A stretch of 64,000 nucleotides of DNA from Acidimicrobiia bacterium (lineage in GTDB: Bacteria; Actinomycetota; Acidimicrobiia; Acidimicrobiales; CATQHL01). Location of the stretch: the NCBI GenBank assembly GCA_009840735.1, contig VXNF01000083.1, positions 10,040 to 74,039 of the forward strand, in the 5' to 3' direction. Position 1 is the first letter of the stretch, and each line of letters opens with the position of its first letter. Made by a program: the position numbers and the translations under genes. Below the pieces are notes generated by a model. The model saw only the letters and a program-made list of their open reading frames with translations, ran no database searches and was not told the origin of the DNA. This document shows positions 30,025-58,534 of the stretch, piece by piece.

Positions 30025-31894
30025 GTGACCGATACCGCCACGCAGCAACCGGCGTCCCGACTGGACCTCGACCGGTTGGTCATCCGCTTCGCCGGCGACT
30101 CCGGCGACGGCATGCAGCTGACCGGCGACCGCTTCACCAGCGCCAGCGCCCTGTTCGGCAACGACCTCGCCACCCTGCCGGACTTCCCCGCCGAGATCCG
30201 GGCGCCGGCCGGCACGCTGCACGGCGTCTCGGCCTTCCAGGTGCAGGTGGCGAGTGACACGGTAACCACGCCCGGCGACGCCCCCACGGTGCTCGTGGCC
30301 ATGAACCCCGCCGCGTTGCGCAGCGAGTTGGGCCGCCTCGAGGCGGGCGGCACGGTGATCGTCAACTCCGACGCCTTCGAGGAGCGCAACCTCGACAAGG
30401 CCGGCTACAGCGACGACCCGCTGGCCGACGGCACCCTCGACGGCTACGCCACGTACCTGGTGCCCATGACGAGCCTCACCAAGGAGGTCTGCAAAGACCT
30501 CGGTGTGAAGCCCCGCGACGCCGAGCGCAGCAAGAACTTCTTCGCGCTCGGGGTGGTGAGCTGGCTGTTCGACCGTCCGGTCCAGCCCACCCTGGACTGG
30601 ATCGAGATGAAGTTCGGCAAGCGGCCCCTCGTGGCGGCCGCCAACACGGCGGCCTTCAAGGCCGGCCACGCCTTCGGCGAGACCGCCGAGATGTTCCAAG
30701 CCACCTACACGGTGCGCCCTGCCGAGCTCGAACCGGGCACCTACACCAGCATCAATGGCAACACGGCGCTGTCGTGGGGGCTGATCGCCGCCGCCCAGCA
30801 GGCCAAGCTGCCGCTGTTCCTGGCCTCATACCCCATCACGCCGGCCTCCGACATCCTGCATGAACTGTCGGGGCGCAAGAACTTCGGCGTGCGCACCTTC
30901 CAGGCCGAGGACGAGATCGCTGCCGTCTGCGCCGCAGTCGGCGCCTCTTTCGGCGGCCACATCGGCGTCACCACCACTAGCGGCCCCGGCTTGGCGCTGA
31001 AGGCCGAGACCATCGGTCTGGCGCTCAGCATCGAGCTTCCGCTCGTGGTGATCGACATTCAGCGGGGCGGCCCGTCCACGGGTCTGCCCACCAAGACCGA
31101 AGCCTCGGACCTCAATCTGGCGCTGTACGGCCGCCATGGCGAGGCCCCGCTGCCGGTCGTGGCCGCCTACAGCCCCTCGCAGTGCTTCTTCGCCGCCATC
31201 GAGGCGGTGCGGATCGCCCTCAAGTACCGCACGCCGGTGATCCTGCTCTCCGACGGCTATCTGGCGAACGGCTCCGAACCGTGGCGCCTGCCCGACCTGG
31301 ACGACCTGCCCGACATCAGCGTCGATTTCACCACCGCGTTCAACGACACTGACGAGGACGGCGCCCCGGTCTTCCGGCCCTACAAGCGCGACCCCGAGAC
31401 GCTGGCCCGGCCCTGGGCGATCCCGGGCACCCCTGATCTGATGCACCGGGTCGGCGGGCTTGAGAAGGAGGAGGTCACCGGCAACATCTCCTATGCGTCC
31501 GCCAACCACCGCCGCATGACCGAGCTGCGCGCCGCCAAGGTGGACGGCGTGGCCGCTGACATCCCGCCGACGATGCTCGACAGCGACGGTCCGGCGGAGA
31601 TGGCGGTGCTGTCGTGGGGCTCGGTGTGGGGAGCGGTCACCAGCGCGGTCCGGCGGGTGCGCCCCGCCGGCGTCGCCGTCGACCACCTGCACCTCACCCA
31701 CCTCAACCCGCTGCCCGCCGACTTGGGTGAGGTGCTGGGCCGGTACCGCAGCGTGCTCGTCCCGGAGATGAACCTGGGGCAGCTGGCCTCGGTCGTCCGA
31801 TCCCGCTACCTGATCGACGTGCAGTCGATCACCAAGGTGGAAGGGGTGCCGTTCACGGCGAGCGAGATCGCCGCCGCCATCGCAGGAGCCGCAG

Positions 31895-44318: not shown

Positions 44319-44392
44319 GGACCGTTAGCTCAGACTGGTAGAGCGCTCGCTTCACACGCGAGAGGTCACTGGTTCAAGTCCAGTACGGTCCA
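44319..44392 (+). tRNA. tRNA-Val (anticodon CAC)
   Basis: A hand-folded cloverleaf fits well: acceptor GGACCGT/ACGGTCC, D-stem GCTC/GAGC, anticodon stem CTCGC/GCGAG with loop TTCACAC, and T-arm ACTGG-TTCAAGT-CCAGT. The discriminator is A. CCA is not encoded. Confidence 0.9.
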
Positions 44393-44743
44393 CTCCGCCA
44401 AGGCACGGTGCCGAAGGCCACGCTGCGGGCACAAGTTCGGGTAGCGGCCCGACGGGCCGGCAGCGAGCCCCGTCGCAGCGGGCGGCTCTGTCCCGGGGCC
44501 GCTGGACCGGCCACCTGCGAGGATGAACGGGCCAATAGACCGCAGCTAGCGTTGCCACGAGGGACGCGAAAGCGATGACGATGTCCTACACCGGTGACGA
44601 GATCCGGAGCTGGCTGCTTCAACCAGGCGACGAGGAGTTTCATCTGGTGGATGCCTTGGTAGCCGAGTCCTCGGTACGGGTGGCGGCGATCTTTGGGCGA
44701 TCTTCGCTGATCGAGTACCGCCCCGCTTGAGCCGTCGCCGTCG

Positions 44744-45563: not shown

Positions 45564-46562
45564 TCAGCCGACGGGCATCAGCACCTTAAGCGAGTCGGGA
45601 CTCTGCACACGCTCGAAGGCGCGGTCGACCTCCGCTAGGCCGATGCGGTCGGTGACGACCGGTTCGAGGTCCAGCACCCCTGCGGCGGCCAGTTCGATGG
45701 CGCGGGCGTAGTCGTCGGCGATGGCCGCCCGCGGGTTGTGGACGGTCAGCTCCTTGAAATACAGCTGGTAATAGGGGAGACCGCCGCCGCTGCCGGTCAC
45801 CGTCCCGAACACCAGGACCTCACCGCCGACGCGGGCCGACTCGATGGCGAGGCCGACCGTGGCCTCGGTCCCGACCGCCTCGACCGCCAAGTCCACGCCC
45901 GCACCGTCGGTGACCTCGGCAATCACCGCGGCGGCTTCGTCGGGCGCGGCCGTCGCCACCGCCCCGAAGGCCGTCGCCAACTCTCGCTTGAAGGCCGAGC
46001 GGGTCACGCCGATGACCGACGCACCCGCGGCCCGCAGCAGCTGGGTGAAGATGAGTCCGCTCACGCCCAGCCCGATGACGACGGCGACATCGCCGGGGAA
46101 GGTCGCGGCGGCACGCTGGGCGTGTACGCAGGTGCCGGCCACCTGCACCATCGCCGCCGCCTGGGACCCCAGGTGCTCCGGCACCGGGAGAAGCCGGCCG
46201 GCCGGGGCGGTCACCAGCTCTGCCCAGACCCCGTCTGCGTCCCGCCCCAGCAGCCCGCCGCGCAGGCACAGGTTCGTCCGGCCCTGTCGGCAGAGCGGGC
46301 ACGAGCCGCAGGAGACAGCCGGATCGATCATCACCCGCTGGCCGGCGGGCACACCCGTGGCGCCGCCGCAGACCACCTCACCGACCATCTCGTGTCCCAT
46401 AACCCGCGGATAGCTGATCGAAATGGCGCCGGAGAGGATCTTCACGTCGGTGCCGCAGATGCCCACGGTCTCGACCCGCACGAGCGCCTCGGGCCCGCTG
46501 GCGGGGGCAGCGACGTCGGCGTAGGCCATCCGGCCCGGAGCGGTAACCTGTACGGCCTTCAT
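45564..46562 (-). CDS. Zinc-dependent alcohol/polyol dehydrogenase (MDR family)
   Basis: The ATG at 46562, preceded by a GGGGAGGG Shine-Dalgarno sequence, gives MKAVQVTAPG. The motifs GICGTDVKIL, GHEMVGEV, CGSCPLCRQG and the Rossmann segment VIGLGVSGL are present. The 695-aa track ORF is over-extended. Confidence 0.85.
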   Translation of the reverse strand: MKAVQVTAPGRMAYADVAAPASGPEALVRVETVGICGTDVKILSGAISISYPRVMGHEMVGEVVCGGATGVPAGQRVMIDPAVSCGSCPLCRQGRTNLCLRGGLLGRDADGVWAELVTAPAGRLLPVPEHLGSQAAAMVQVAGTCVHAQRAAATFPGDVAVVIGLGVSGLIFTQLLRAAGASVIGVTRSAFKRELATAFGAVATAAPDEAAAVIAEVTDGAGVDLAVEAVGTEATVGLAIESARVGGEVLVFGTVTGSGGGLPYYQLYFKELTVHNPRAAIADDYARAIELAAAGVLDLEPVVTDRIGLAEVDRAFERVQSPDSLKVLMPVG

Positions 46563-46706
46563 ACCCTCCCCCGATTTGGCTGAGAGCGCCTCGGCAATGG
46601 ACAGTAACAGTGTGCCCCCGAGTCGCCCCTTGCGCCACGGTGACCGGTGTGCCGCAACCGCCGCTGCCGGTCCGCCGACTCGCTGCCCGCAGGAAGGTGC
46701 GCCGCG

Positions 46707-47327
46707 GTGAGCGGCCACGCCTGGGTGGTCGCGGGTGGTGAGCCGCCCGGGCGCCGCCTGCTGGGGGAGTTGGCGCCTCCGAAACTCATCGTGGCGGCCG
46801 ACTCCGGTGCCGATGTCGCTCTTGGGCTCGGGCTGAGGGTCGACGTGGTCGTGGGCGACTTCGACTCGGCAACGCCCGCAGCGGCAGCCGCGGCCGGCGA
46901 GCGGCGTCGATTCCCGACCGACAAGGACGCCACCGACCTGGCTCTGGCGTTGGCCGAGGCACGCGACCGCGGTGCCGCGAGCATCACCTTGGTGGGCGGC
47001 GCCGGCGGGCGGTTGGACCACCTGCTGGCGAACGTGGCGGCCATCACGGCCGAGGAGTTGGCCGAGGTCCGCATCGACGCCGCCATGGGTTCGGCCCGTC
47101 TCTGGGTGGTGCGCCGCGCTGAGACGCTCCGCGGCGCCGTGGGCGACCTCGTGACCTTGCTGGCCCACGGCGGTCCCGCCACCGGCGTGGGGACCTCCGG
47201 GCTGCGCTGGGCCTTGGCGGGCGAAACGCTGGAGGCGGGCTCCAGCCGGGGCGTCAGCAACGTCTTCGAAGCACGGGAGGCAACCGTGACCCTCGAGTCG
47301 GGCGTAATCCTGGCGATCCGACCCTGA
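46707..47327 (+). CDS. Thiamine diphosphokinase
   Basis: The product contains ADSGAD...VVGDFDS, KDATDLALAL and GGAGGRLDHLLAN motifs. I chose the GTG at 46707 (GGAAGG upstream). The GTG at 46647 is an alternative start. Confidence 0.75.
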   Translation: MSGHAWVVAGGEPPGRRLLGELAPPKLIVAADSGADVALGLGLRVDVVVGDFDSATPAAAAAAGERRRFPTDKDATDLALALAEARDRGAASITLVGGAGGRLDHLLANVAAITAEELAEVRIDAAMGSARLWVVRRAETLRGAVGDLVTLLAHGGPATGVGTSGLRWALAGETLEAGSSRGVSNVFEAREATVTLESGVILAIRP

Positions 47328-47474
47328 TCTGGTCGGCTGCTCGCGCCGGCGGGTCTGGTACCCGCGGCCGTTGGCCGTGGGATTCGTGACTGCGCTATCC
47401 GCGGCCACGCGCCGCCGGCGTGGCCACTGCCAGCGTCGCTGGCGTATCGTGGTGCGACAGCATCGGGAGGCGCC

Positions 47475-48353
47475 ATGGCACTGACCCAGACCCAGATCGA
47501 GGCCTACGAGCGAGACGGCTACCTGGTCGTCCAGGACGCGCTCACAGCCAGCGAGGTGGCCGAGCTGCAGGACGCGGCCGACCGCTTCGCACAGCAGGCG
47601 CTGAACCTCACCGAGGACTCCGACGTCATCGAGTTGGACGACGCGCCGCACCTAGCGGGCGGGCCGCCGCTGATTCGGCGCATTCGGAGCCCCCACACCA
47701 ACCATGAGGCCTTCGCTGAGGCATTGGCGCATCCTGGGCTGTTGGACATCGTGGAGGATCTCATCGGAGGCGCCATCCGCTGGATGCACTCCAAGCTGAA
47801 CGCCAAGCAGCCCGGCGGCGGCGGGATCGGCGAGTGGCACACCGACTGGGGCTACTACCCGCACACCAACGACTCGGTCCTCGAGGTCGGCATCGCCCTC
47901 GATCCGTGTACCGAGGCCAGCGGCTGCATGCTGGTGGTGCCCGGCAGTCACCGCGGGCGGGCGTATGACCACAGCCAGAACGGCCGCTTCGTCGGGGGCG
48001 TGCGCCCCGGCGTGTTCGACCCCGCTGACGTGGCGCCCGTGGAGCTGCAGCCCGGGGACATCTCGCTGCACCACGTCCGGCTGTTGCACGGCTCGGGCCA
48101 GAACCGCACGGACCGCCAGCGGAGGCTGCTGCTGCACGGCTACTCCGCCGTCGACGCTTGGCCGCTCATGGGCCGCAGCCAGCCCTCGGACTGGCCGGAA
48201 TGGGACGCCCAAATCCTGCGCGGCAGCCCGACAACTGAGGCCCGCCTCGAGTCCTGCCCGGTGGTGGTCCCGTTGCCCGACCCGCCCGCCTTCGGGCTGT
48301 TCAAGCTGCAGGCCACGATGGAGGAGTCGCACTTCGCCGAGACGGCCTCTTAG
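47475..48353 (+). CDS. Phytanoyl-CoA dioxygenase (PhyH) family Fe(II)/2OG oxygenase
   Basis: The N-terminal segment is YERDGYLVVQDAL. A WHTDWGY (HxD) motif and a distal HHVRLLHGSGQN His are present. Confidence 0.85.
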   Translation: MALTQTQIEAYERDGYLVVQDALTASEVAELQDAADRFAQQALNLTEDSDVIELDDAPHLAGGPPLIRRIRSPHTNHEAFAEALAHPGLLDIVEDLIGGAIRWMHSKLNAKQPGGGGIGEWHTDWGYYPHTNDSVLEVGIALDPCTEASGCMLVVPGSHRGRAYDHSQNGRFVGGVRPGVFDPADVAPVELQPGDISLHHVRLLHGSGQNRTDRQRRLLLHGYSAVDAWPLMGRSQPSDWPEWDAQILRGSPTTEARLESCPVVVPLPDPPAFGLFKLQATMEESHFAETAS

Positions 48354-50662: not shown

Positions 50663-50697
50663 CCCGCAGATCCAAAGAACTATCTTGGATTTGCGGG
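50663..50697 (+). terminator. Stem-loop, 13-bp stem (one G-U), 9-nt loop; candidate terminator without a U-tract
   Basis: The arms cccgcagatccaa (50663-50675) and ttggatttgcggg (50685-50697) pair. The structure begins 14 nt after the oxidoreductase stop codon. Confidence 0.4.
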
Positions 50698-50702
50698 GCA
50701 TG

Positions 50703-50753
50703 CGCCCTCGTCGGGCCCGGAAACTTGCTCCCTCATGGCCCCGACGAGGGGCG
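50703..50753 (+). other. Second long stem-loop (11 bp contiguous, plus 2 bp past a bulge)
   Basis: ccctcgtcggg (50705-50715) pairs with cccgacgaggg (50740-50750). It follows the first hairpin directly and lies upstream of the giant gene. Confidence 0.4.
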
Positions 50754-50947
50754 AATTGTAAGTGGCACTTTCAATCCGCACCCTCGGGGCCGGGCTGCCG
50801 GGGCGTGAGATGCACCGAGATTGCCTCGCCGGGCGGGGCACGGCCGTAGCCGACCGCGCCCACTTGCGATGCGGGGGGATACAGTCCGGTTGTTCGCTGG
50901 AGGTTGCGAGTCGGGCGTGTGGGTTCTTGTCGCCGGGGAGAGAGGGC

Positions 50948-53900
50948 GTGGTGGTAGCTGATTGGGCCCCACCTGACGGGAAGTTGGGCCGCTTCGTCGC
51001 AGAGGAGTCGCAGAATTCCCTTGACGCCTACCGCGCCCAGCCGATCAATCTGCGAGCGAATGTCGCTGAGGAGCGGGACATCATCCAGGGTGGCTACCAA
51101 GATCGGCAGCTCGTCGAGCTGGCCAAGAACGGTGCCGATGCGATCTGGTCTCGGGCTCACGCTCGGGGCGGCGAGCTCGAGCCAGCCGATAGCGATTGCG
51201 GCGAGGATGCGTCGGCAACTCCCGGACGACCTGCCCAACCGTCAGGGCGCGAGTCGTCGGGGGGTTCCCGTGGACGGATCGAAGTCCGTCTCACCGGCGA
51301 CTGCCTCTACTGCGCAGACGACGGCGAACCCATCAACTGCCATGGTGTCACGGCGCTCATGTTCTCGCGACTCGGCACCAGACGAGGGACCGATCAGATC
51401 GGCATGTTCGGGCTCGGCTTCAAGTCCGTGCTCGGCGTCAGCGACTCGCCGGAGTTCTTCAGCCGGTCAGGCTCATTTCGCTTCGACCGCGCCGAGTCGC
51501 GCCGGCGCGTGCGCAAGGTGGTGCCGGACGCTGAGGAGTGCCCGGTGCTTCGCCTCCCCGAGCCGATCCACCCCGCCGAGTGCTCCCGCCGCGACGACGT
51601 GCTGGCGGACCTCATGGACTGGGCGGCCAACATCGTGCGGTTGCCGCTCAAGGGCGGGGCGCACCAAGGCCTGCTCTGTCAGATGCGAAAATTTCCCGCG
51701 GAGTTCCTGCTCTTCGTGCCCCACGTCGCCAAGATCGCACTGATCGACGATTCCGACACGCCGAATCGGGAGTTCGAGGTGGAGCAGGTCGACGGCGATT
51801 ATCTCCTCGCTGGCGGGGACGAGACCAGTCACTGGAGGTTGTTCGAACGCGCCCATGAGTTGTCGGCGGACGCTCTTGTGGCCCGGATGGACGGCGACGA
51901 CCGCCACGAAGTTTCGGTTCGCTGGGCGGTGCCAATCGACCGGCTTGGCCCATCCACGAAGTTCTGGGCGCACTTCCCGACCGAGACGGAGAGCCTCGTG
52001 CCCGGAATCTTGAATGCGCAGTGGAGGACCGACCACACGTGGACGCACCTGCATGGCAGACCCTACAACGACGACTTGATCGGCGCCGCGGCACAGCTGA
52101 TCGCGGAGGCGCTGCCCGAACTCTCGACCGCGGAGGACCCGGCGCAACACCTCGACGCCCTGCCTCGCCGCGGCGAACGCGGGGACAACTACTTCGCGGA
52201 CCGTATCCGAAGCCGGCTTTTCGAGCTGGTGCAGGAACGGGAGATCGTGCCCGACCAAGACGGGAAGTTGCGTTGCGCGCGGACCCTCAAGTACCCGCCC
52301 GACGTGGGCGCTCGGGCGCTGGATCGGTGGGCGGCCTATCCCGGTCGTCCCCGCGACTGGCTCCACCACGCGGCGCTTCGGACTCAGCAGCGCCGCTCGA
52401 CCGTCGCTCGACTGTGGCACGGCGACGCGGCTGGCAGCACCAACCCAAAGCTCCCGGATGCGCGAATTGCCGAGTGGTTGGAGGCGCTCACCGCCGCCGC
52501 GGCCCCCGGCGACAGGGTTGAGGCGTCAAGGGCGGCAGTGCAGACCGCCGCGCTCATTCCGTCAGATCGCCGCGGTTCCGGATTGGGGAAGATCATCCTG
52601 ACGGCGCAGGGCGCTTGGGAATACCCCGACGTCGATCGGCTCGAACTGCCGGACGAGTCGACGGTCGAGGACTCCGAGATCGCCCCTGCCGTCTCCGTCC
52701 ATCCGGAGTTGGCATCGGATCCCCAGACGCGGAAGGCGCTGGAGGATCTGGGACTGAGACCGCCGTCGGATGAGAGGCGCTTCCGCCGCGCGGCCGATGC
52801 CGTGCTGAGGTCACGGTGGCCATCTGACGACGCCGACCGTCACACGCGGTTCTGGGAGTTGTCACGCAAGCTGGACGTCGCTGGAGCGCTCAAGATCATG
52901 GACGATTGCTGGAACCAGGTCATTGAGGAGTGGCGGGACCGGATCATTGGAGAGCTCAGGTATTGGGGCGCCCAGCTTCGAGTGCGGACTCGCGCGGGTG
53001 GCTGGGAGTCGATCTGCTCGGTCCTGATGCCGGAAGACATCGTGCCCGGCGACGGGAGCCGAGACGACGGCGCAACGGTCGACCTGGAGTTCCACTCGCC
53101 CAATGAGGCACTACTGCGCCGACTCGGAGCGGTGGAAAGCCCCGAGGGCGGCCGGGACCTGTCGGTGGAACCGGGATTCGAGGCGTATCGTGAGGATCAC
53201 AGAGCCGCGTTCCTCCAACAACCGAATCTTGCGTGCACACCGGGTAGCAAGCGGCGTCCGCAATCCAAACGACTTCAGTTCGTATCGGAATGTGGCGTCG
53301 GCCCGCTCGGGGTTCTCGCCGCGCTCTCCGAGGAGGGCAAGGCGCTCTACACGCAGGCACTACTGGACTCGGACGACTGTTTCGCGCCGTGGATCATGCG
53401 GCATGACCTCCAGAACCCGTGCAACTGCCCGAAGATGGAGTGCGCGCCGCTGGCGGTGAGCGCCATCCGGGCACACGGTCGCATCCAGACCCGCGACGGG
53501 ATCGTTCCGTTCTCGGACGCGCTCGGCAAGCCTCCGCCGAATTCTGTCGCTCTGGAGGCCCTGCTGCGGCATCGGAAAGCAGAGCAGATCAAGCAGGCAT
53601 TCGATCTTGACGATCCGAAACCCGAGGTATACGGCGAGGAGGATCCGACCCCGCTGACCGAGGTCTGGCCCGGTCTCGCGAGCTATCTGAATCCAGGGCA
53701 AATTCGGGTCGCGCTCGTCCGCTGCGGTCGCATTCGCGTCCTGGAGGACGAACGCGAGAGTGCCTTCGACGGGGATGTGGTGTACCTGGCCGCAGCCAGC
53801 GAGTCTGACATGGACCTGGCGCACCAGCCGCGGCTCGTGGCGCAGGCACTCCAACTCGACCTGTCCGATTCTGAGATTCAGAGGATCCCGGCCTATCGGC

Positions 53901-55600
53901 CGCCAGCGGAGATCGCGGAGCGGCGCGCCAGGGTGCGCGCCTGCGAGACCGACGAGCGGCGCCTGCTCGAAGCTGTGGGGGTCGATGCGCTGCGCGGTGG
54001 CCTGCCTGCGTCCCTGCTCACGGTGATCGCCCCGGATGGCGGCGAGTTGAGCGACGAGGAGGTCGCCAAGGCCGCTATCGCTGTCTCCGGAACCGGCGTG
54101 CTGAGACACTACAAATCTCACCTACGAGACCTCGATCCGCCGCCGCAGCTGGCAGGGTCGCGACTCGCCATCGAGTTCGTCCGCTCCCTCGGGCTCCCCG
54201 ACGACTGGGCGGGGTCGCGCAGCGCGAAGCCGGATCCGTTCGAGGAGGTCGACGCCCGCCCGCTCCCGAAGCTTCACGACTTCCAGGAGACGATCGTCGG
54301 CAACGTGCGGCAGATGATTCGGGAAGGCTCCGGGAGCACTGGCGGGGGCCGCGGCTTCCTCAGCCTCCCGACCGGCTCTGGCAAGACCCTTGTCGCCATT
54401 CAAGCGATAGTCGAGGAGATTCGCGCCAGGCACGAGAACGGGGCGGCGGGGCCACTCGACGGCCCGATTCTCTGGGTCGCCCACCGGGGGGAACTCTGCG
54501 AACAGGCGTTTGTGGCGTGGCAGCAGGTTTGGGCGAACATCGGACCGACAGGTGTGCGGCTCCGCGTCTCTCGGCTGTGGGGCGGCCAGGAGGAGCCACG
54601 AGCCGTGGACTATCCGCACGTGGTGGTGGCGACAGTCCAAACGCTGCGATCCAGGATCAGGGCTGGCTCGGAGGCGAACTGGTACTCGGAGAACGTCCCC
54701 TTGGTGGTGTTCGACGAAGCGCATCGAGCGATAGCACCCGAATCCACGACGGTGCTCAAGGCCATCGGCCTGGAGGGAGCCAGCAGAGCCCAGGAGTCGC
54801 TGCTGTTGGGACTCTCAGCCACTCCGCACCGGGGCTACAACGACGAGGAGACCCGACGTCTGGCTCGCCGCTTCGATGAGAACCGCCTGGATCGAGGTGT
54901 TTTCGAGAGCGACGATGCAGAGCAGGTCATCTCCGAATTGCAGGGACGCGGCGTTCTCGCGTACGCAGATCATGAGTTCCTTGTGGGTGCAACGGTCGAG
55001 TTGAGCGAGGCGGATCTGGAAGGACCCAAGCGGTTCATCCGGGAGGAACGCGACGCGGCTGGCAGAACTGGCCCGATTGACTGGGACGACCCAGACACAC
55101 TTGTCAGGCTGCGGGTCCACTCGGAAGGCGAACTGGCCCGCCGTGCCGCCGCCGACCAAGGCCGCTCACTGCGGATCATCGAGCGATGCGCCGAGCTCGC
55201 CGAGGAACGGCAGATCGTCGTCTTCGCCACGACGGTCGAGCACGCGCAGACCGTCGCAGCCGCGCTCGAGCTGCGGGGCATCACGGCGCGGAGCGTGAGC
55301 GGTGACACGCGTCCCGCGGACCGCAAGCGGGCGGTCGAGGGATTCCGGCGGGGCGACGTCCGGGCGCTCGTCAACTACAACGTGTTCACCGAGGGATTCG
55401 ACGCCCCCAAGACTGAAGCCATCGTCGTGGCCCGCCCTGTCTCCCGCCCCAACGCCTACTTCCAGATGATCGGCCGAGGTCTGCGGGGACCGGAGAACGG
55501 CGGCACCGAGCGCTGCCTCATCGTCAACGTGCAGGACAACTTCGGGAGGTTCGGGTACAGCTTGGCCTTCACCGAGCTGGACTGGCTCTGGGCCAGCTGA
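50948..55600 (+). CDS. Giant fusion protein: sacsin/MORC-like GHKL ATPase, unknown ~700-aa region, SF2 DEAH helicase (ResIII plus Helicase_C)
   Basis: The continuous frame spans 50762-55600 (1612 codons). I favour the GTG at 50948, which follows the purine-rich GGGGAGAGAGGG. GHKL motifs are the N-box LVELAKNGADA (51116-51142), ADDGEPI (~51317) and the G2 box IGMFGLGFKSV (51398-51430). A sacsin-repeat-like FWAHFPTETESLVPGILNAQW lies at ~51962. Helicase motifs are I LPTGSGKT (~54366), II VFDEAHR (~54706), III LSATPHR, V FTEGFDAP and VI QMIGRGLRG (~55460). Confidence 0.8.
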   Translation: MVVADWAPPDGKLGRFVAEESQNSLDAYRAQPINLRANVAEERDIIQGGYQDRQLVELAKNGADAIWSRAHARGGELEPADSDCGEDASATPGRPAQPSGRESSGGSRGRIEVRLTGDCLYCADDGEPINCHGVTALMFSRLGTRRGTDQIGMFGLGFKSVLGVSDSPEFFSRSGSFRFDRAESRRRVRKVVPDAEECPVLRLPEPIHPAECSRRDDVLADLMDWAANIVRLPLKGGAHQGLLCQMRKFPAEFLLFVPHVAKIALIDDSDTPNREFEVEQVDGDYLLAGGDETSHWRLFERAHELSADALVARMDGDDRHEVSVRWAVPIDRLGPSTKFWAHFPTETESLVPGILNAQWRTDHTWTHLHGRPYNDDLIGAAAQLIAEALPELSTAEDPAQHLDALPRRGERGDNYFADRIRSRLFELVQEREIVPDQDGKLRCARTLKYPPDVGARALDRWAAYPGRPRDWLHHAALRTQQRRSTVARLWHGDAAGSTNPKLPDARIAEWLEALTAAAAPGDRVEASRAAVQTAALIPSDRRGSGLGKIILTAQGAWEYPDVDRLELPDESTVEDSEIAPAVSVHPELASDPQTRKALEDLGLRPPSDERRFRRAADAVLRSRWPSDDADRHTRFWELSRKLDVAGALKIMDDCWNQVIEEWRDRIIGELRYWGAQLRVRTRAGGWESICSVLMPEDIVPGDGSRDDGATVDLEFHSPNEALLRRLGAVESPEGGRDLSVEPGFEAYREDHRAAFLQQPNLACTPGSKRRPQSKRLQFVSECGVGPLGVLAALSEEGKALYTQALLDSDDCFAPWIMRHDLQNPCNCPKMECAPLAVSAIRAHGRIQTRDGIVPFSDALGKPPPNSVALEALLRHRKAEQIKQAFDLDDPKPEVYGEEDPTPLTEVWPGLASYLNPGQIRVALVRCGRIRVLEDERESAFDGDVVYLAAASESDMDLAHQPRLVAQALQLDLSDSEIQRIPAYRPPAEIAERRARVRACETDERRLLEAVGVDALRGGLPASLLTVIAPDGGELSDEEVAKAAIAVSGTGVLRHYKSHLRDLDPPPQLAGSRLAIEFVRSLGLPDDWAGSRSAKPDPFEEVDARPLPKLHDFQETIVGNVRQMIREGSGSTGGGRGFLSLPTGSGKTLVAIQAIVEEIRARHENGAAGPLDGPILWVAHRGELCEQAFVAWQQVWANIGPTGVRLRVSRLWGGQEEPRAVDYPHVVVATVQTLRSRIRAGSEANWYSENVPLVVFDEAHRAIAPESTTVLKAIGLEGASRAQESLLLGLSATPHRGYNDEETRRLARRFDENRLDRGVFESDDAEQVISELQGRGVLAYADHEFLVGATVELSEADLEGPKRFIREERDAAGRTGPIDWDDPDTLVRLRVHSEGELARRAAADQGRSLRIIERCAELAEERQIVVFATTVEHAQTVAAALELRGITARSVSGDTRPADRKRAVEGFRRGDVRALVNYNVFTEGFDAPKTEAIVVARPVSRPNAYFQMIGRGLRGPENGGTERCLIVNVQDNFGRFGYSLAFTELDWLWAS

Positions 55601-55684: not shown

Positions 55685-55703
55685 CCACGGTTGCGGCGCG
55701 GGC

Positions 55704-57080
55704 TCAGAGCCCGCAGCGATCCAGGATCGGCGCTGCTGCTGACTCGAAGTTGCTGAGGGTGAAGGAGGCGGTGCCGACCGGCGCGCCGTCGTAGCCGAAG
55801 ACTCGAATCACCAGGTCGGCCTCGGGATCGAGGCGGATCATGTCCACGAAATCGGCGACGAGCCACGGGGGGACCGACACGCCCGCGTCGGAACTCTGGC
55901 CCCCGGCGAATTCGAGCCACTCCTGGGTTCTGGTGGCGTCGCCGACTCGGTACTCGACCGGCACGCCGCGGCCGTAGGCGGCGGCGATTGTGCCTCCTGT
56001 GCGGATGGTGAGGGTGAGTCCGCGGGAAGCGGTCGGTGCGGTCTCGTCGATCGGCTCGGCGGTCTCGTCGGGGGTCTCAGAAGGTGCCTCGACCGTGCAG
56101 GAGATCGATAGGTCCGGCACGGCCTGAGCCTCTCGGTCGGTGATCCCCAGCCAGATGCCGGAGAGCTGGCTGGCCAGCGTCTCGCTCTCGAGGATCGGAT
56201 CTTGGCTGCTGACCCGGTGCCAGGTTCCGGAAGGCCACGGCGCTCCGCATGCCTCCGCGGGGATCCACCAGAAGTCCTCTGGTCCGGCGGGCTCCTCGTC
56301 GGTCCCTGGGGTTTCCTCGGGCCAGGTGATGGCCTCGGCTGGGGGGGTCTCGTCGCTGGTCTCTTCGGGCCGGGCGGTCTCGTCAGAGAGGGCGGTCTCG
56401 TCGCTGTCGGGCGGGGTGATTTCCTCCGGCGCTGGGGATTTGCTGGAGGCTTCGTCGGGCGAGCCCGACTCGTCCGGGGAGGCCGGCGGTAAGTCGGTCG
56501 TTGTCGGGGGGCAGCGCAGGTAGCCGCACAGGTCGTACATCGACGGCTGTTCGGCGGGCTCGTGGCTCGCTTCGAAACGGACCGTTCGCCCTGCTCGGAC
56601 GTGTGCCTCGCCGCAGATGACTTCCGCCACCCAGACCCCGGGGCCGATGCACGTGACGTGCCAGTCCGCCAGAGCCGGGTCGTACCCGATGGGCGCCGCC
56701 TGCGGGCAGTCGCCGTCGGTGGCTTCGTCGGTTTCGTCGGGCGGGGCGTGGGGGATCCACAGCGAGAATCCGGAGACGAGAACGAACGTGCCCTCGGGCG
56801 TCACCACCACGGGCGGGGCCTCAGAGACCCCCATGGCAAATCCGGGGATCGTTCCGAGAGCGTCCTCGACGAGGGCGTCCACGCCGGTGGTGTCCTCGGC
56901 GGGTGTGTCCTGCTCCTGGGCGGCGACATGGATGGCCGGCAGGGCCAGCAGAGAACCGGCCAGAATCGCCGCCAGGATGGGAGCCAGCAACCGGCCGGGC
57001 AGCCGTTCCCGGCGGGCGGGCTCGGTCCGACGGCGCGTCGGCGCCGCGGCCGGTTGCCGCTGAGGTGTGTTCGAGATCAT
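55704..57080 (-). CDS. Secreted or membrane-anchored hypothetical protein with acidic Pro/Glu/Thr-rich linker
   Basis: The N-terminus has an Arg-rich segment followed by the hydrophobic LLAPILAAILAGSLLALPAIHVAAQ. A central PEETSDETPP-type linker follows. Several Cys residues are spaced through the protein. An ATGA overlap joins it to the upstream lipoprotein gene. Confidence 0.6.
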   Translation of the reverse strand: MISNTPQRQPAAAPTRRRTEPARRERLPGRLLAPILAAILAGSLLALPAIHVAAQEQDTPAEDTTGVDALVEDALGTIPGFAMGVSEAPPVVVTPEGTFVLVSGFSLWIPHAPPDETDEATDGDCPQAAPIGYDPALADWHVTCIGPGVWVAEVICGEAHVRAGRTVRFEASHEPAEQPSMYDLCGYLRCPPTTTDLPPASPDESGSPDEASSKSPAPEEITPPDSDETALSDETARPEETSDETPPAEAITWPEETPGTDEEPAGPEDFWWIPAEACGAPWPSGTWHRVSSQDPILESETLASQLSGIWLGITDREAQAVPDLSISCTVEAPSETPDETAEPIDETAPTASRGLTLTIRTGGTIAAAYGRGVPVEYRVGDATRTQEWLEFAGGQSSDAGVSVPPWLVADFVDMIRLDPEADLVIRVFGYDGAPVGTASFTLSNFESAAAPILDRCGL

Positions 57081-58534
57081 GGAGCAGGGGCCTCCTGTAC
57101 CGCTTCGGCCTCCTCCTGCGGCGCCTCGTCCTCGGGAACGAGTTCGGCGATCACCTCGTCCGGCGCCGACGGGTTGCTGGCCGCCTCCCAGGCCACGCCG
57201 GGGTCGTCATCGGCGGCGAGGTCGGCGAGCACCTCGGGCGGAGTGGCCGGATTCGCGGCAACGGCCCGCCGAACGAGGAAGTCGTCATCGGTGGCCAGGT
57301 CGGTCAGCGCCGACGTCGGGGTGCTCGGATTGCCGGCCACCAGGGAGCGCACCGTCGGGTCCTGGTCTCCGGCCAGGTCGCTGAGGGTCGCTGCCGGGGC
57401 GACCGGGTTGCGGGCCACGCCGATGAGGGCGCCGGGTGCGGCACACCCGAAGACCTCGTTGCGGCGGAGGAAGCGCCCGACGGCGGCCTGATCGGCGAGC
57501 GCGGCGAGCAGACTCGGCGGGGTTGACCGATTCTCCGCCACGGCCCGGCAGGCCATGGGGTCCACGGTGCTGGCGACGATGTGCGCTAGGGCGTCGGGCG
57601 GCGCGTTCGGATTCGACGCGACCCAAACCGCCACGTCCGGCTCGGGGTCCCAAGCGAGCGCCAGCAGCGCGCCCGCCGGAGTGCGCGGGTTGGCGGCGGC
57701 CCATTGGCGAGCCGGCAGGTCAGCGGTCAAGGTGGCGAGCACGGCGTGCCACGGGCCGGGATTGGCGGCGGCGCCGCGCCGCGGATCCGGCTGCACCGGC
57801 TCGGGCTCCACCTCTTCGGGCTCCTCCGGCAGGGGCTCCAACTCGCCAGGCGGGCGGCGAACCTCAGGCAGGTTCCTGGCCTGGGGCCAGTTCGACGGGT
57901 TGGCGGCCGCCAGCCAGCGCACGCCGGGATCGCCGTCGGACAGCAGGCCCGCCAGCACGGTCGGCGGCGTCGCCGGATTGGCTGCCACCGCCCGGCGCAC
58001 CGCCACCTCGGCGTCGGTCTCGGAGCCGACGAGCTCGGCGAGCGCGCTCGGCGGCGTCGAGGGATCCGCGGCGCGCTGCAAGTCGCGCTCGGGGTAATCG
58101 GTGGGCTCGTCGCCCGTCGGCGTCACCGCGGCGGACACGAGATCCTCGGCAGGATCCATCGCCGACTCCTCGGCCTGCGCGGGCGGCTCGACAAGCTCCT
58201 CCTCTGGCGTGGCTTGGTCCCCGGCATCGTTTGGTTCGCCGAGGTCGTCTTCGGGTGGCGCGGCTGCCACGGTCGGCTCGTCGGGCTCGACGATGGACTC
58301 GTCCAAGCCGTCGGCATCGTCGAACTCCTCCGGCAGCGCCTCGGGGGCGGGGCGCGGCAGTGAACTCACGAGCGGGGACCGCTCGGTCGTGGCGGTGGTC
58401 TCCTCGGCCACGGGGGCCGGGGCGGCGACGGCCGCCGGCGGCGCCGGAGGCGGCGACGATGAGCCGCCGATAGCCGAACAGGCGCCGCCGACGCCGACGG
58501 CCAGCGCCAACACGCCGGCGAGGCGCCGTGTCAC
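57077..58534 (-). CDS. Lipoprotein with ~10 leucine-rich-variant (LRV)/HEAT-like repeats
   Basis: The lipobox is MTRRLAGVLALAVGVGGAC. An acidic Pro/Glu linker follows. After it come reiterated units of the form (A)xNPxTPxxxLxxLxxDxDxxVRxxVAxNP. Confidence 0.7.
   Translation of the reverse strand: MTRRLAGVLALAVGVGGACSAIGGSSSPPPAPPAAVAAPAPVAEETTATTERSPLVSSLPRPAPEALPEEFDDADGLDESIVEPDEPTVAAAPPEDDLGEPNDAGDQATPEEELVEPPAQAEESAMDPAEDLVSAAVTPTGDEPTDYPERDLQRAADPSTPPSALAELVGSETDAEVAVRRAVAANPATPPTVLAGLLSDGDPGVRWLAAANPSNWPQARNLPEVRRPPGELEPLPEEPEEVEPEPVQPDPRRGAAANPGPWHAVLATLTADLPARQWAAANPRTPAGALLALAWDPEPDVAVWVASNPNAPPDALAHIVASTVDPMACRAVAENRSTPPSLLAALADQAAVGRFLRRNEVFGCAAPGALIGVARNPVAPAATLSDLAGDQDPTVRSLVAGNPSTPTSALTDLATDDDFLVRRAVAANPATPPEVLADLAADDDPGVAWEAASNPSAPDEVIAELVPEDEAPQEEAEAVQEAPAP

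Follow-up and report, generated by a model that had tools for sequence, protein, structure and literature searches.

The stretch of DNA analyzed here, called the window in what follows, comprises 64,000 nucleotides of contig VXNF01000083.1 of an Acidimicrobiia bacterium, and our subject is a single very large gene within it, whose product joins a sacsin-type GHKL ATPase to a superfamily 2 (SF2) helicase. An earlier note, made by reading the sequence, had pointed to an uninterrupted frame of about 1550 aa at 50948-55600, and this is borne out by the list of open reading frames (ORFs), by the translation and by the N termini of the homologs. One open frame extends over 50762-55600 on the plus strand; the GTG at 50948, with GGAGAG just 5' of it, is the start at which all homologs align, and from there the product measures 1,550 aa.

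50948..55600, plus strand: complete gene, 1,550 codons and a stop (ORF list and translation; start in agreement with the N termini of the homologs; at least 120 full-length homologs)

The product is a three-part protein with a sacsin-type GHKL ATPase at the N terminus, a middle region of ~730 aa and an SF2 helicase at the C terminus. Two joined ATPase modules had been proposed; the fusion of GHKL and SF2 is real, but a conserved third module of ~730 residues, without a known fold relative, sits between the two. All motifs quoted in the earlier note for both ATPases could be located in the window protein. The three-part architecture is the norm of the family, with most cluster representatives measuring ~1,530-1,570 aa. 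The N terminus of the window protein reads VVVADWAPPDG, and no secretion signal is evident in it by eye.

Conservation was judged in two alignments of full-length homologs, one of 39 and one of 112 sequences; in the latter the window protein ended at residue 1100, and the helicase boxes were there nearly invariant (90% or more). The features of the N-terminal module are the following.

51110..51142, plus strand: GHKL N-box LVELAKNGADA (E57, N61, D64), residues 55-65; located as a motif, invariant in both alignments
51146..51259, plus strand: lineage-specific, low-complexity disordered insertion, residues 67-104; predicted local distance difference test (pLDDT) below 50, missing in the alignment with the Arthrobacter homolog
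51317..51427, plus strand: G1 box DDGEP (residues 124-128) and G2 box GMFGLGFKS (residues 152-160); motif location and alignments
51962..52024, plus strand: sacsin-family motif FWAHFPTETESLVPGILNAQW, residues 339-359; located as a motif, in a flexible low-confidence loop

The N-box of GHKL ATPases coordinates Mg-ATP. Residues E57, N61, D64, D124, G152, G155 and G157 are invariant in both alignments; G126, F158 and K159 are invariant among the 39 sequences, and among the 112 F158 remains invariant while G126 and K159 are kept in at least 90%. The G1 box has a proline in place of the second glycine, matching the family consensus. In the sacsin-family motif W340, G353, N356 and W359 are invariant (39-homolog alignment), and the residues around it (344-367) have pLDDT below 50. 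The insertion at residues 67-104, 38 residues rich in Gly, Ser, Pro and Ala, follows directly after the N-box helix and is variable across the family.

An AlphaFold model of residues 1-1100, built with 112 homologs, has a mean pLDDT of 84.5. In it residues 1 to ~370 form a Bergerat fold, a beta-rich second domain (residues 228-330) and a flexible loop carrying the FW..FPT motif. The top Foldseek match of this model in the PDB is repeat 1 (SR1) of human sacsin (5v44, E 2e-4, probability 1.0), followed by the N-domains of HtpG, Hsp90 and Grp94, by MORC2, which aligns over 365 columns (E 0.026), and by the N-terminal domain of MutL. Since the model matches sacsin SR1, Hsp90, MORC2 and MutL, and since the box residues are invariant, the modeled structure confirms the N terminus as a sacsin-type GHKL (Bergerat-fold) ATPase, in line with the sacsin/MORC-type fold that had been read from the motifs. 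Family profiles score lower: the window protein reaches 45.1 bits against NCBIfam P_loop_sacsin (NF047352; cutoff 50) and a weak 18-21 bits against Pfam SACS (PF25794; cutoff 32.8, E 0.002). With the latter a homolog on the Arthrobacter plasmid p2MP passes at 33.7 bits, and the full-length proteins P0003, P0005 and P0030 stay below the cutoff at 15-27 bits.

The C-terminal part contains the second ATPase.

54269..55486, plus strand: SF2 helicase core (Pfam, PDB sequence matches, motif location)
within 54269..55486, plus strand: RecA1 (ResIII/DEAD), residues 1108-1295 (Pfam)
54374-54388, plus strand: GSGKT (Walker A), residues 1143-1147 (motif location)
54713-54724, plus strand: DEAH, residues 1256-1259 (motif location)
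54815-54823, plus strand: SAT, residues 1290-1292 (motif location)
within 54269..55486, plus strand: RecA2 (Helicase_C), residues 1414-1513 (Pfam)
55385-55408, plus strand: FTEGFDAP, residues 1480-1487 (motif location)
55463-55489, plus strand: QMIGRGLRG, residues 1506-1514 (motif location)

Here the Pfam thresholds are passed (ResIII 69 bits, cutoff 22.5, E 5.5e-19; DEAD 55 bits; Helicase_C 53 bits, E 3.5e-14), and the Walker A and DEAH boxes are invariant in the 39-sequence alignment. The best sequence match in the PDB is RadD (6jde), with Hef, XPB and SauUSI as further ones; the helicase is also near type III/IV restriction helicases by sequence and stays far under every family-specific threshold. 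These matches confirm the C terminus as a predicted complete Rad25/RadD-like SF2 helicase with motifs I, II, III, V and VI present, so that the intact helicase of the earlier note stands.

Between the two ATPases lies a region for which the databases offered no relative.

52058..54247, plus strand: conserved middle region, mixed alpha/beta, residues 371-1100 (separate model, Foldseek, Pfam, hhalign)
53084..53293, plus strand: hypervariable patch, residues 713-782 (comparison with the 97%-identical allele at the sister locus L001)

Residues 370-1100 modeled alone reach a pLDDT of 90.8, and the region is conserved over its full length in both alignments; the residues up to ~726 are also common to the Arthrobacter plasmid homolog, which is helicase-less. 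Foldseek gave no match to the middle region at E<=0.001 (best E 0.15 in the PDB and 0.06 in BFVD), and Pfam, scanned with the whole protein and with sub-regions, gave none to it either. Comparison of the region with itself by hhalign yielded a best off-diagonal E of 0.075, not significant for internal repeats. A nuclease, methylase or other effector within the protein was also considered, and Pfam, the PDB sequence search and Foldseek of the middle region against the PDB and BFVD gave none.

A way to look at which parts of the protein change fastest is to compare it with its nearest allele. Against L001, residues 713-782 hold 33 of the 47 amino-acid differences together with a 7-aa indel, and the helicase has just 2 amino-acid differences (3 nucleotide changes). 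Synonymous divergence is likewise uneven: the first 1,100 codons show 0.04-0.05, the helicase 0.003 and the flanks 0-0.01. The uneven synonymous divergence and the clustering of the differences point therefore to a gene that is a recombination mosaic with a hypervariable patch. A diversity-generating retroelement was rejected as the source of the patch, the substitutions being of all types and no template repeat being found in the window. Because dN/dS (the ratio of nonsynonymous to synonymous divergence) against L001 comes to 0.19 for the GHKL part and stays below 1 in each of the three parts, the window gene appears to be functional and under purifying selection.

The family is large and widely scattered. 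The protein database holds more than 120 full-length homologs at 45-56% identity, generically named 'DEAD/DEAH box helicase', and HMMER with residues 1-1100 retrieved 449 cluster representatives (50% identity clusters) at E<=1e-30, mostly at 32-37% identity. In an alignment-based scan that covered a single genome for each GTDB species, 518 relatives came up. The best ~60 of these are full-length at 40-54% identity and come from Acidimicrobiia, Chloroflexota (Dehalococcoidia, SAR202, Caldilineaceae), Acidobacteriota, Gemmatimonadota, Binatia, Spirochaetia, Verrucomicrobiota (Opitutales) and Alpha- and Gammaproteobacteria. The closest full-length relatives span at least 8 phyla, which is the patchy phyletic distribution that the earlier note had proposed to look for. 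In a neighbor-joining tree the Acidimicrobiia are grouped and the other phyla are mixed (Terriglobia beside a Versatilivoraceae member, for example, or one Acidimicrobiia copy within a Chloroflexota group), which indicates horizontal transfer. The homologs of Streptomyces and Solirubrobacterales branch off deeper, at 31-38% identity. A search for other architectures with the N-terminal part alone returned just fragments of the same family.

The records of the best ~60 carry names such as Candidatus Poriferisocius, Spongiisocius, Poriferihabitaceae, APA_bin, SB0661, Sva0996 and SAR202 bins, and a data note ties such records of metagenome-assembled genomes (MAGs) to sponge genome projects (PMC12859430). 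Going by these names, the closest ~60 full-length homologs are almost only from sponge-associated MAGs of many phyla, and sacsin is otherwise a eukaryotic chaperone (PMC3710099); both observations would suit a role in symbiosis, with a 'eukaryote-like' sacsin-domain protein by which sponge symbionts act on the host and not on invading nucleic acids. We give this explanation very little credence. The protein contains a predicted DNA/RNA translocase and no secretion signal evident by eye, and it has homologs on an Arthrobacter plasmid and in free-living Streptomyces and Solirubrobacterales. Because the free-living homologs sit inside DISARM-like operons (see below), a host-directed symbiosis protein is unlikely.

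In sister Acidimicrobiales MAGs the gene is found in one and the same slot, which reaches from the PhyH/M24/Gfo side to the ABC-transporter/CNNM side and whose other content varies. The slot is shared by the window and by L001, L002, L003 and L005, and identity to the window differs sharply between the gene and its surroundings.

L001: flanks 99.5-100% identical, giant gene 96.5%
L002: flanks 85-90% identical, giant gene 55.6%
L005: flanks 74-88% identical, giant gene 50%

The divergence of the gene is 3-10 times that of the flanks. According to the earlier note, homologs universally conserved in syntenic housekeeping contexts would speak against a role in defense. One conserved slot does exist in the Acidimicrobiales sisters, but because the slot varies in what it contains and the gene shows the evolution of an accessory one, the conserved slot does not refute the defense reading. 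One Acidimicrobiales MAG (isolate 2e4b594b) has two full-length paralogs on different contigs (L005 and L009), both 50-51% identical to the window protein, the one in the conserved slot and the other elsewhere. Split, truncated or interrupted copies were also seen (L039, L051, L052, L058, L059, L061, L062, L066 and L068; proteins P0121-P0240), some of them on megabase contigs; at L066 the gene is present as three consecutive ORFs, the middle one (450 aa) with a ResIII/DEAD fragment. Such broken copies reflect either frequent pseudogenization or long-read frameshift errors, and they fit an accessory gene. As far as the sequences tell, then, the family is accessory, laterally mobile and fast-evolving.

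The genes that accompany the relatives were examined by clustering the ORFs of 83 loci. There is no universal neighbor: no cluster occurs in more than about one third of the loci, and there is no conserved downstream partner. Several distinct contexts recur. In the deeper branch (31-38% identity) the giant gene comes first in an operon and is followed by a UvrD/GajB-like helicase, DrmA and DrmB, in all six of the loci sampled; the PADLOC matches are strong (DrmA E 2e-241, DrmB E 6e-72), and a NERD-UvrD helicase-nuclease comes next in the two metagenomic loci, L088 and L089.

DISARM-like loci: L063:9950-21770, L064, L065, L067, L088:1642-15092, L089:1034-16529

At L089 an HNH gene and a cytidine deaminase are inserted in the operon. 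With the giant gene at its head, a DrmB of the MZB type and no methyltransferase in the operon, this arrangement looks like an undescribed class of DISARM-like operon.

In a second group a gene for a BrnT RNase toxin (~100 aa, PF04365, E 3e-25) lies just upstream of the giant gene. It was found in ~20 loci, mostly of Pseudomonadota, Acidobacteriota and Binatia, and the brnT stop overlaps the start of the giant gene by the same 4 nt by which it overlaps an antitoxin gene.

BrnT-linked loci: L013:9606-14434, L011, L014-L019, L021, L023, L034, L041, L042
further BrnT-linked loci: L045, L049, L051, L055, L058, L068, L072, L074

Every BrnT-linked protein with a readable N terminus, and no other, carries ~25 additional N-terminal residues, MK.EYDFSKGERGKFFRE.AKL.LP; the giant proteins of this group start with MK.EYDFSKGERGKFF..., and the subfamily peptide can also be written MKxEYDFSKGERGKFF. 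A profile of the peptide retrieves a large family of 66-aa proteins (E ~1e-11; 81% identity over 26 residues), whose genes, in unrelated genomes, come right after brnT and overlap it (P0258, for example; loci L083-L086). Because they are encoded directly after brnT and overlap it, these 66-aa proteins are taken as the cognate BrnT antitoxins. They consist of the same N-terminal peptide and an apparent ribbon-helix-helix tail, so in the BrnT-linked clade the DNA-binding tail of the antitoxin would in effect have been swapped for a 1,500-aa GHKL-helicase. The 47-aa antitoxin-like peptide found no match in Pfam or in the PDB. The window gene and the whole Acidimicrobiia clade are without BrnT and without the antitoxin peptide.

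A third context is that of the helicase-less homolog mentioned above, a protein of 1,096 aa on plasmid p2MP of Arthrobacter sp. 68b (NZ_KJ410765.1, L087:6773-16977) that is 30% identical over residues 17-726 (E 1e-82). The p2MP operon encodes a C5-methyltransferase, the sacsin-like homolog, a MzaB-like HATPase_c_3 protein, a DUF4420 PD-(D/E)XK protein (MzaD-like) and a Z1 protein (MzaC-like); in PADLOC the sacsin-like homolog matches TmtA models alone and not MzaA. Finally, at L003 (340-7946) and L004 a complete type I restriction-modification system (hsdM, hsdS, hsdR) and a YgjP-like gene lie just upstream of the orthologue, in the same slot. Two further arrangements were noticed in passing. 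At L022:14762-17302 the gene after a Dehalococcoidia homolog, on the same strand, encodes an HsdR-like protein of 846 aa (HSDR_N and ResIII), and genes of the PDC-S01 type (AAA_14 and DUF4143, a PADLOC candidate system) lie within 10 kb of homologs in ~7 loci (L040:14828-16168, L033, L036, L071 and others).

In the window the gene stands by itself. Queries for DrmA, DrmB, the UvrD-like and the NERD helicase, taken from L063, L064 and L088, found no tblastn match in its 64 kb, nor did the Mza genes (MzaB, MzaC, MzaD and the methyltransferase). The BrnT hidden Markov model is without match in the six frames of the window, no antitoxin peptide stands at the N terminus of the protein, and a degraded BrnT or antitoxin peptide, looked for upstream of the gene, was not found. 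The solitary gene described in the earlier note is thus confirmed: no partner gene of the relatives was matched anywhere in the 64 kb. One may ask if such a copy has been orphaned from a system of several genes, DISARM-like or BrnT-coupled, and is inert alone or needs partners elsewhere in the genome. The deeper branch always has the gene as the first of a 4-5-gene operon, a large sister clade is BrnT-coupled, no effector domain was detected in the window copy by Pfam or Foldseek, and many metagenome copies are fragmentary. Yet the whole Acidimicrobiia clade and most Chloroflexota have solitary genes that are full-length with invariant catalytic residues, dN/dS is below 1 in all three parts, and the retention of one slot across family-level divergence argues for a solitary function; we consider the orphaned module improbable.

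The composition of the gene sets it apart from its surroundings, as had been noted by eye. Its G+C content is 66.8% against 70.9% for the window; for GC3 (G+C at third codon positions) it has a value of 0.80, the flanking housekeeping genes 0.90-0.93. No other stretch of that size (4.65 kb) in the window is poorer in G+C, and 1% of equal-sized windows are as low.

On balance we think it probable that the gene is functional on its own and belongs to an unnamed family of ATPases that survey nucleic acids as a guard against phages or plasmids. We favor this defense reading because relatives of the gene are found in DISARM-like, Mza-like, type I restriction-modification and BrnT contexts, because the family is spread patchily and because the gene diverges more than its flanks. 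The candidate single-gene defense or surveillance system of the earlier note thereby gains from the patchy spread, the fast divergence and the conflict-module contexts of the relatives, while its function is inferred by association.

Several observations weigh on the other side. No member of the family was found on IMG/VR viral contigs, where there were helicase-domain matches only, and no full-length member on PLSDB plasmids. Within 10 kb of the gene there is no defense island; there are metabolic or transport genes and, on the other strand, two unannotated or LRV-repeat genes. In the whole 64-kb window we saw no nuclease, methyltransferase, toxin or partner known from relatives, and no device for discriminating self from non-self could be recognized. 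The closest relatives are almost all MAGs of marine-sponge symbionts, an origin that we infer from record names alone. One Acidimicrobiales family keeps the gene in its slot down to a flank identity of ~75-88%, as it would a vertically inherited cellular factor, and the top curated match of the helicase is RadD (NCBIfam NF053632, 95 bits), RadD 6jde being also its best PDB sequence match.

The last two points, together with the absence of a linked nuclease or methylase from the 64-kb window, are what a cellular genome-maintenance factor would lead one to expect: a RadD/XPB-like repair or replication-restart helicase joined to a MutL/MORC-like clamp and inherited vertically in Acidimicrobiales. 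Pairs of GHKL and helicase proteins do work in mismatch repair, as in MutL-UvrD (PMC2292703), and the window, L001, L002, L003 and L005 all have the gene in the same slot among housekeeping genes. We nevertheless regard such a factor as unlikely. The RadD score of 95 bits has to be set against a cutoff of 720 and comes from the RecA2 domain alone (residues 1401-1529); the divergence of the gene exceeds that of the flanks 3-10 fold, and its codon composition is atypical; it is patchy over at least 8 phyla at 40-50% identity, with frequent broken copies; and its relatives are linked with genes of the BrnT, DISARM-like, Mza-like and type I restriction-modification kinds.

If the gene does act in defense, a mechanism can be sketched from better known ATPases. 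In MORC, MutL and Hsp90 the binding of ATP dimerizes the GHKL heads; in GHKL ATPases other than this family an N-terminal strap swaps between the protomers when ATP binds. By analogy, ATP binding would dimerize the GHKL heads of the giant protein, which would close as a clamp. Recognition of the invader, whether by some property of its DNA or by a protein of the phage, would fall most likely to the middle region with its variable patch, and the SF2 motor, of the Rad25/type III Res kind, would translocate on double-stranded DNA. In the relatives the output could come from the linked effectors, either a BrnT RNase held by the antitoxin peptide or DrmAB together with the NERD nuclease-helicase proteins. 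The toxin-binding peptide of the BrnT clade is placed directly before the GHKL N-terminal strap, and closure of the clamp could free the RNase. For the solitary form the output would most likely be direct interference, with replication or transcription complexes being stalled on foreign DNA or stripped from it, or else would involve unlinked host factors; any specific output of the solitary form is far less sure than the defense reading overall.

More tentatively, the family could represent a new class of immune sensor, in which a GHKL clamp, a hypervariable recognition domain and an SF2 translocase are combined with exchangeable outputs, the solitary form being independent of nuclease and modification and spread among sponge symbionts. 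We regard this as possible though doubtful. Were it true, the BrnT clade would release its RNase on dimerization over foreign DNA, the DISARM-like clade would feed DrmAB, and the solitary form would clamp and evict phage replication or packaging complexes without nuclease, toxin or methylase; the spread of the gene would then reflect horizontal transfer through a dense, phage-rich community of sponge symbionts.

The family is of interest in several ways. GHKL ATPases of the MORC, sacsin-like and MutL-like kinds turn up repeatedly both in eukaryotic genome defense and in prokaryotic conflict systems, and we know of no sacsin-type GHKL member of a defense system with a known mechanism; for Tiamat (see below) no account of the mechanism was found in the searchable literature. 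One sensor scaffold with three natural outputs (solitary, toxin-coupled, DISARM-like) would make sensing and signaling testable by swapping the outputs. The BrnT-linked relatives are small two-gene modules in which activation should read out as RNase toxicity, and the solitary form raises the question of whether a clamp with a translocase interferes without a nuclease. That the closest relatives, drawn from at least 8 phyla, are found almost exclusively in sponge symbionts would make a clean example of habitat-driven sharing of a defense-like gene. The bacterial homologs may also inform the ATPase repeat of human sacsin, the protein of the disease ARSACS (the Charlevoix-Saguenay form of autosomal recessive spastic ataxia).

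The remaining features of the locus concern its borders and its neighbors.

50663..50750, plus strand: two stem-loops (50663-50697 and 50705-50750), inverted repeats of 13 and 14 nt
55698..55714, no strand assigned: short GC-rich 8-bp palindrome between convergent gene ends, overlapping the stop of the minus-strand 458-aa gene

The upstream stem-loops sit in a 298-nt spacer 3' of a Gfo/Idh/MocA gene and are stable (minimum free energy -56.5 kcal/mol; against shuffles, z = -5.3); probably they mark off the upstream operon as terminators or insulators. Strong hairpins had been proposed for both sides of the gene, and this holds upstream but not downstream, where the region folds modestly better than shuffles (z ~ -2). 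A consensus scan for T-tract terminators and sigma-70-like promoters found none, and such a scan is uninformative in a high-GC organism. A lack of same-strand partners had also been proposed, which does not hold to the letter but does hold in functional terms. Three upstream genes (PhyH, M24 peptidase and Gfo/Idh/MocA) do share the strand, but they are metabolic, lie ~300 nt and the hairpins away and are not kept beside homologs.

Downstream lie two convergent genes, both of reduced GC3 (0.84-0.87). The first (55704-57080, minus strand) encodes a 458-aa protein without Pfam or PADLOC match that is 31% identical to its counterpart at L002, and the second (57077-58534, minus strand) a 485-aa LRV-repeat protein that is 51% identical, against 85-90% for the flanks; at L002 this gene pair is located upstream of the giant gene and not downstream. 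The whole interval from Gfo/Idh/MocA to the ABC transporters appears to behave as a variable region. Further upstream, the 695-aa ORF at 45564-47651 (minus strand) is an over-extension, since residues 388-689 alone match alcohol-dehydrogenase domains; the annotation of its L001 counterpart has a 332-aa alcohol dehydrogenase and a separate hydrolase gene. A tRNA-Val(CAC) at 44319-44393 (plus strand) is not adjacent to the gene, nor is a 92-nt tRNA-Ala(AGC) at 30714-30805 (minus strand) that was predicted by ARAGORN alone and not confirmed by Rfam. No integrase was noticed close to the locus, and Rfam matched nothing in the window but a tRNA away from the gene.

How the gene relates to named systems remains to be set out. 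The earlier note had not recognized the architecture as that of a named system and had listed DISARM and Mza among those that it does not resemble, without considering Tiamat. This has to be corrected: the first ~500 residues are homologous to TmtA of Tiamat, the deeper branch stands in DISARM-like operons and a helicase-less relative in a Mza-like one. It was right in that the gene is not a member of any named system; its architecture has no full-length model match in PADLOC-DB 2.0.0.

50990..52492, plus strand: TmtA-shared module, residues 15-515 (GHKL, beta-rich second domain and first helical/beta-hairpin unit; PADLOC PDLC03964, Foldseek)

Tiamat (TmtA), reportedly validated as a single-gene anti-phage system by Millman et al. 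in 2022, is the nearest of these. Like it, the window gene is a single very large gene, and the N-terminal GHKL with ~250 further residues is homologous; eight of the nine PADLOC TmtA models (PDLC03964-03972) match residues ~15-520, the best being PDLC03964 (E 1.8e-38, residues 15-515). A plain Tiamat system with a TmtA orthologue is, for all that, very improbable, and the orthologue was ruled out by the coverage of the profile: only positions 11-450 of 1538 (~30%) are matched, and nothing C-terminal. The window protein has instead the 730-aa region and an SF2 helicase, with no nuclease detected, where TmtA is reported with a PD-(D/E)XK nuclease (bioRxiv 10.1101/2024.10.26.620412).

Prokaryotic GHKL ATPases of the MORC and paraMORC kind were described together with SF2 helicases in restriction-like systems by Iyer, Abhiman and Aravind (2008; PMC2292703). 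The likeness lies in the pairing of a GHKL with a Rad25-like or other SF2 helicase, in the sporadic, mobile distribution and in the predicted logic of a clamp or loop combined with a translocase; but those systems encode the GHKL and the helicase in separate genes and have nucleases and usually also methylases beside them (PMC2292703), whereas the window gene fuses both ATPases, its GHKL belongs to the sacsin type and neither the protein nor the 64 kb contains a nuclease or methylase. With RadD, XPB (Rad25), Hef and type III Res-like helicases the protein shares the helicase core, with all seven motifs; it remains far under the cutoff of the RadD family, and its 1,100-residue N-terminal part has no counterpart in those helicases.

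DISARM is said to go back to Ofir in 2018. Family members at 31-38% identity head operons of this type, but the window has no DrmA, DrmB, UvrD-like or NERD gene. Bell et al. (2025; bioRxiv 10.1101/2025.09.15.676423) write of 'many uncharacterised DISARM-like classes' around YprA/DrmA helicases, and their text makes no mention of a GHKL, sacsin or MORC component. The same authors describe ArmD of ARMADA type II, a GajB-like helicase that carries a fused RelE-like domain (Bell et al., 2025; bioRxiv 10.1101/2025.09.15.676423). Along these lines, the BrnT-linked relatives join an RNase toxin to a defense-like helicase, the giant gene taking the place of the antitoxin gene after brnT; the window gene and its Acidimicrobiia clade differ from BrnT/BrnA in having neither the toxin nor the peptide. 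Mza (MzaABCDE) is attributed to Gao et al. in 2020. It is approached through the helicase-less homolog in the Mza-like operon of p2MP; but none of its genes are present in the window, the window protein has a helicase of its own, and among 25 of 34 PADLOC families matched by the protein there is no Mza model.

The searchable literature gave no description of a sacsin-type GHKL with a 730-aa region and a fused SF2 helicase. The gene is nevertheless of a kind already known, GHKL and SF2 restriction-like systems having been recognized since 2008 and Tiamat sharing its N-terminal module. What appears to be new is the graft of an antitoxin peptide in the BrnT-linked relatives, the DISARM-like operon headed by the giant protein and the habitat-restricted spread among sponge symbionts.

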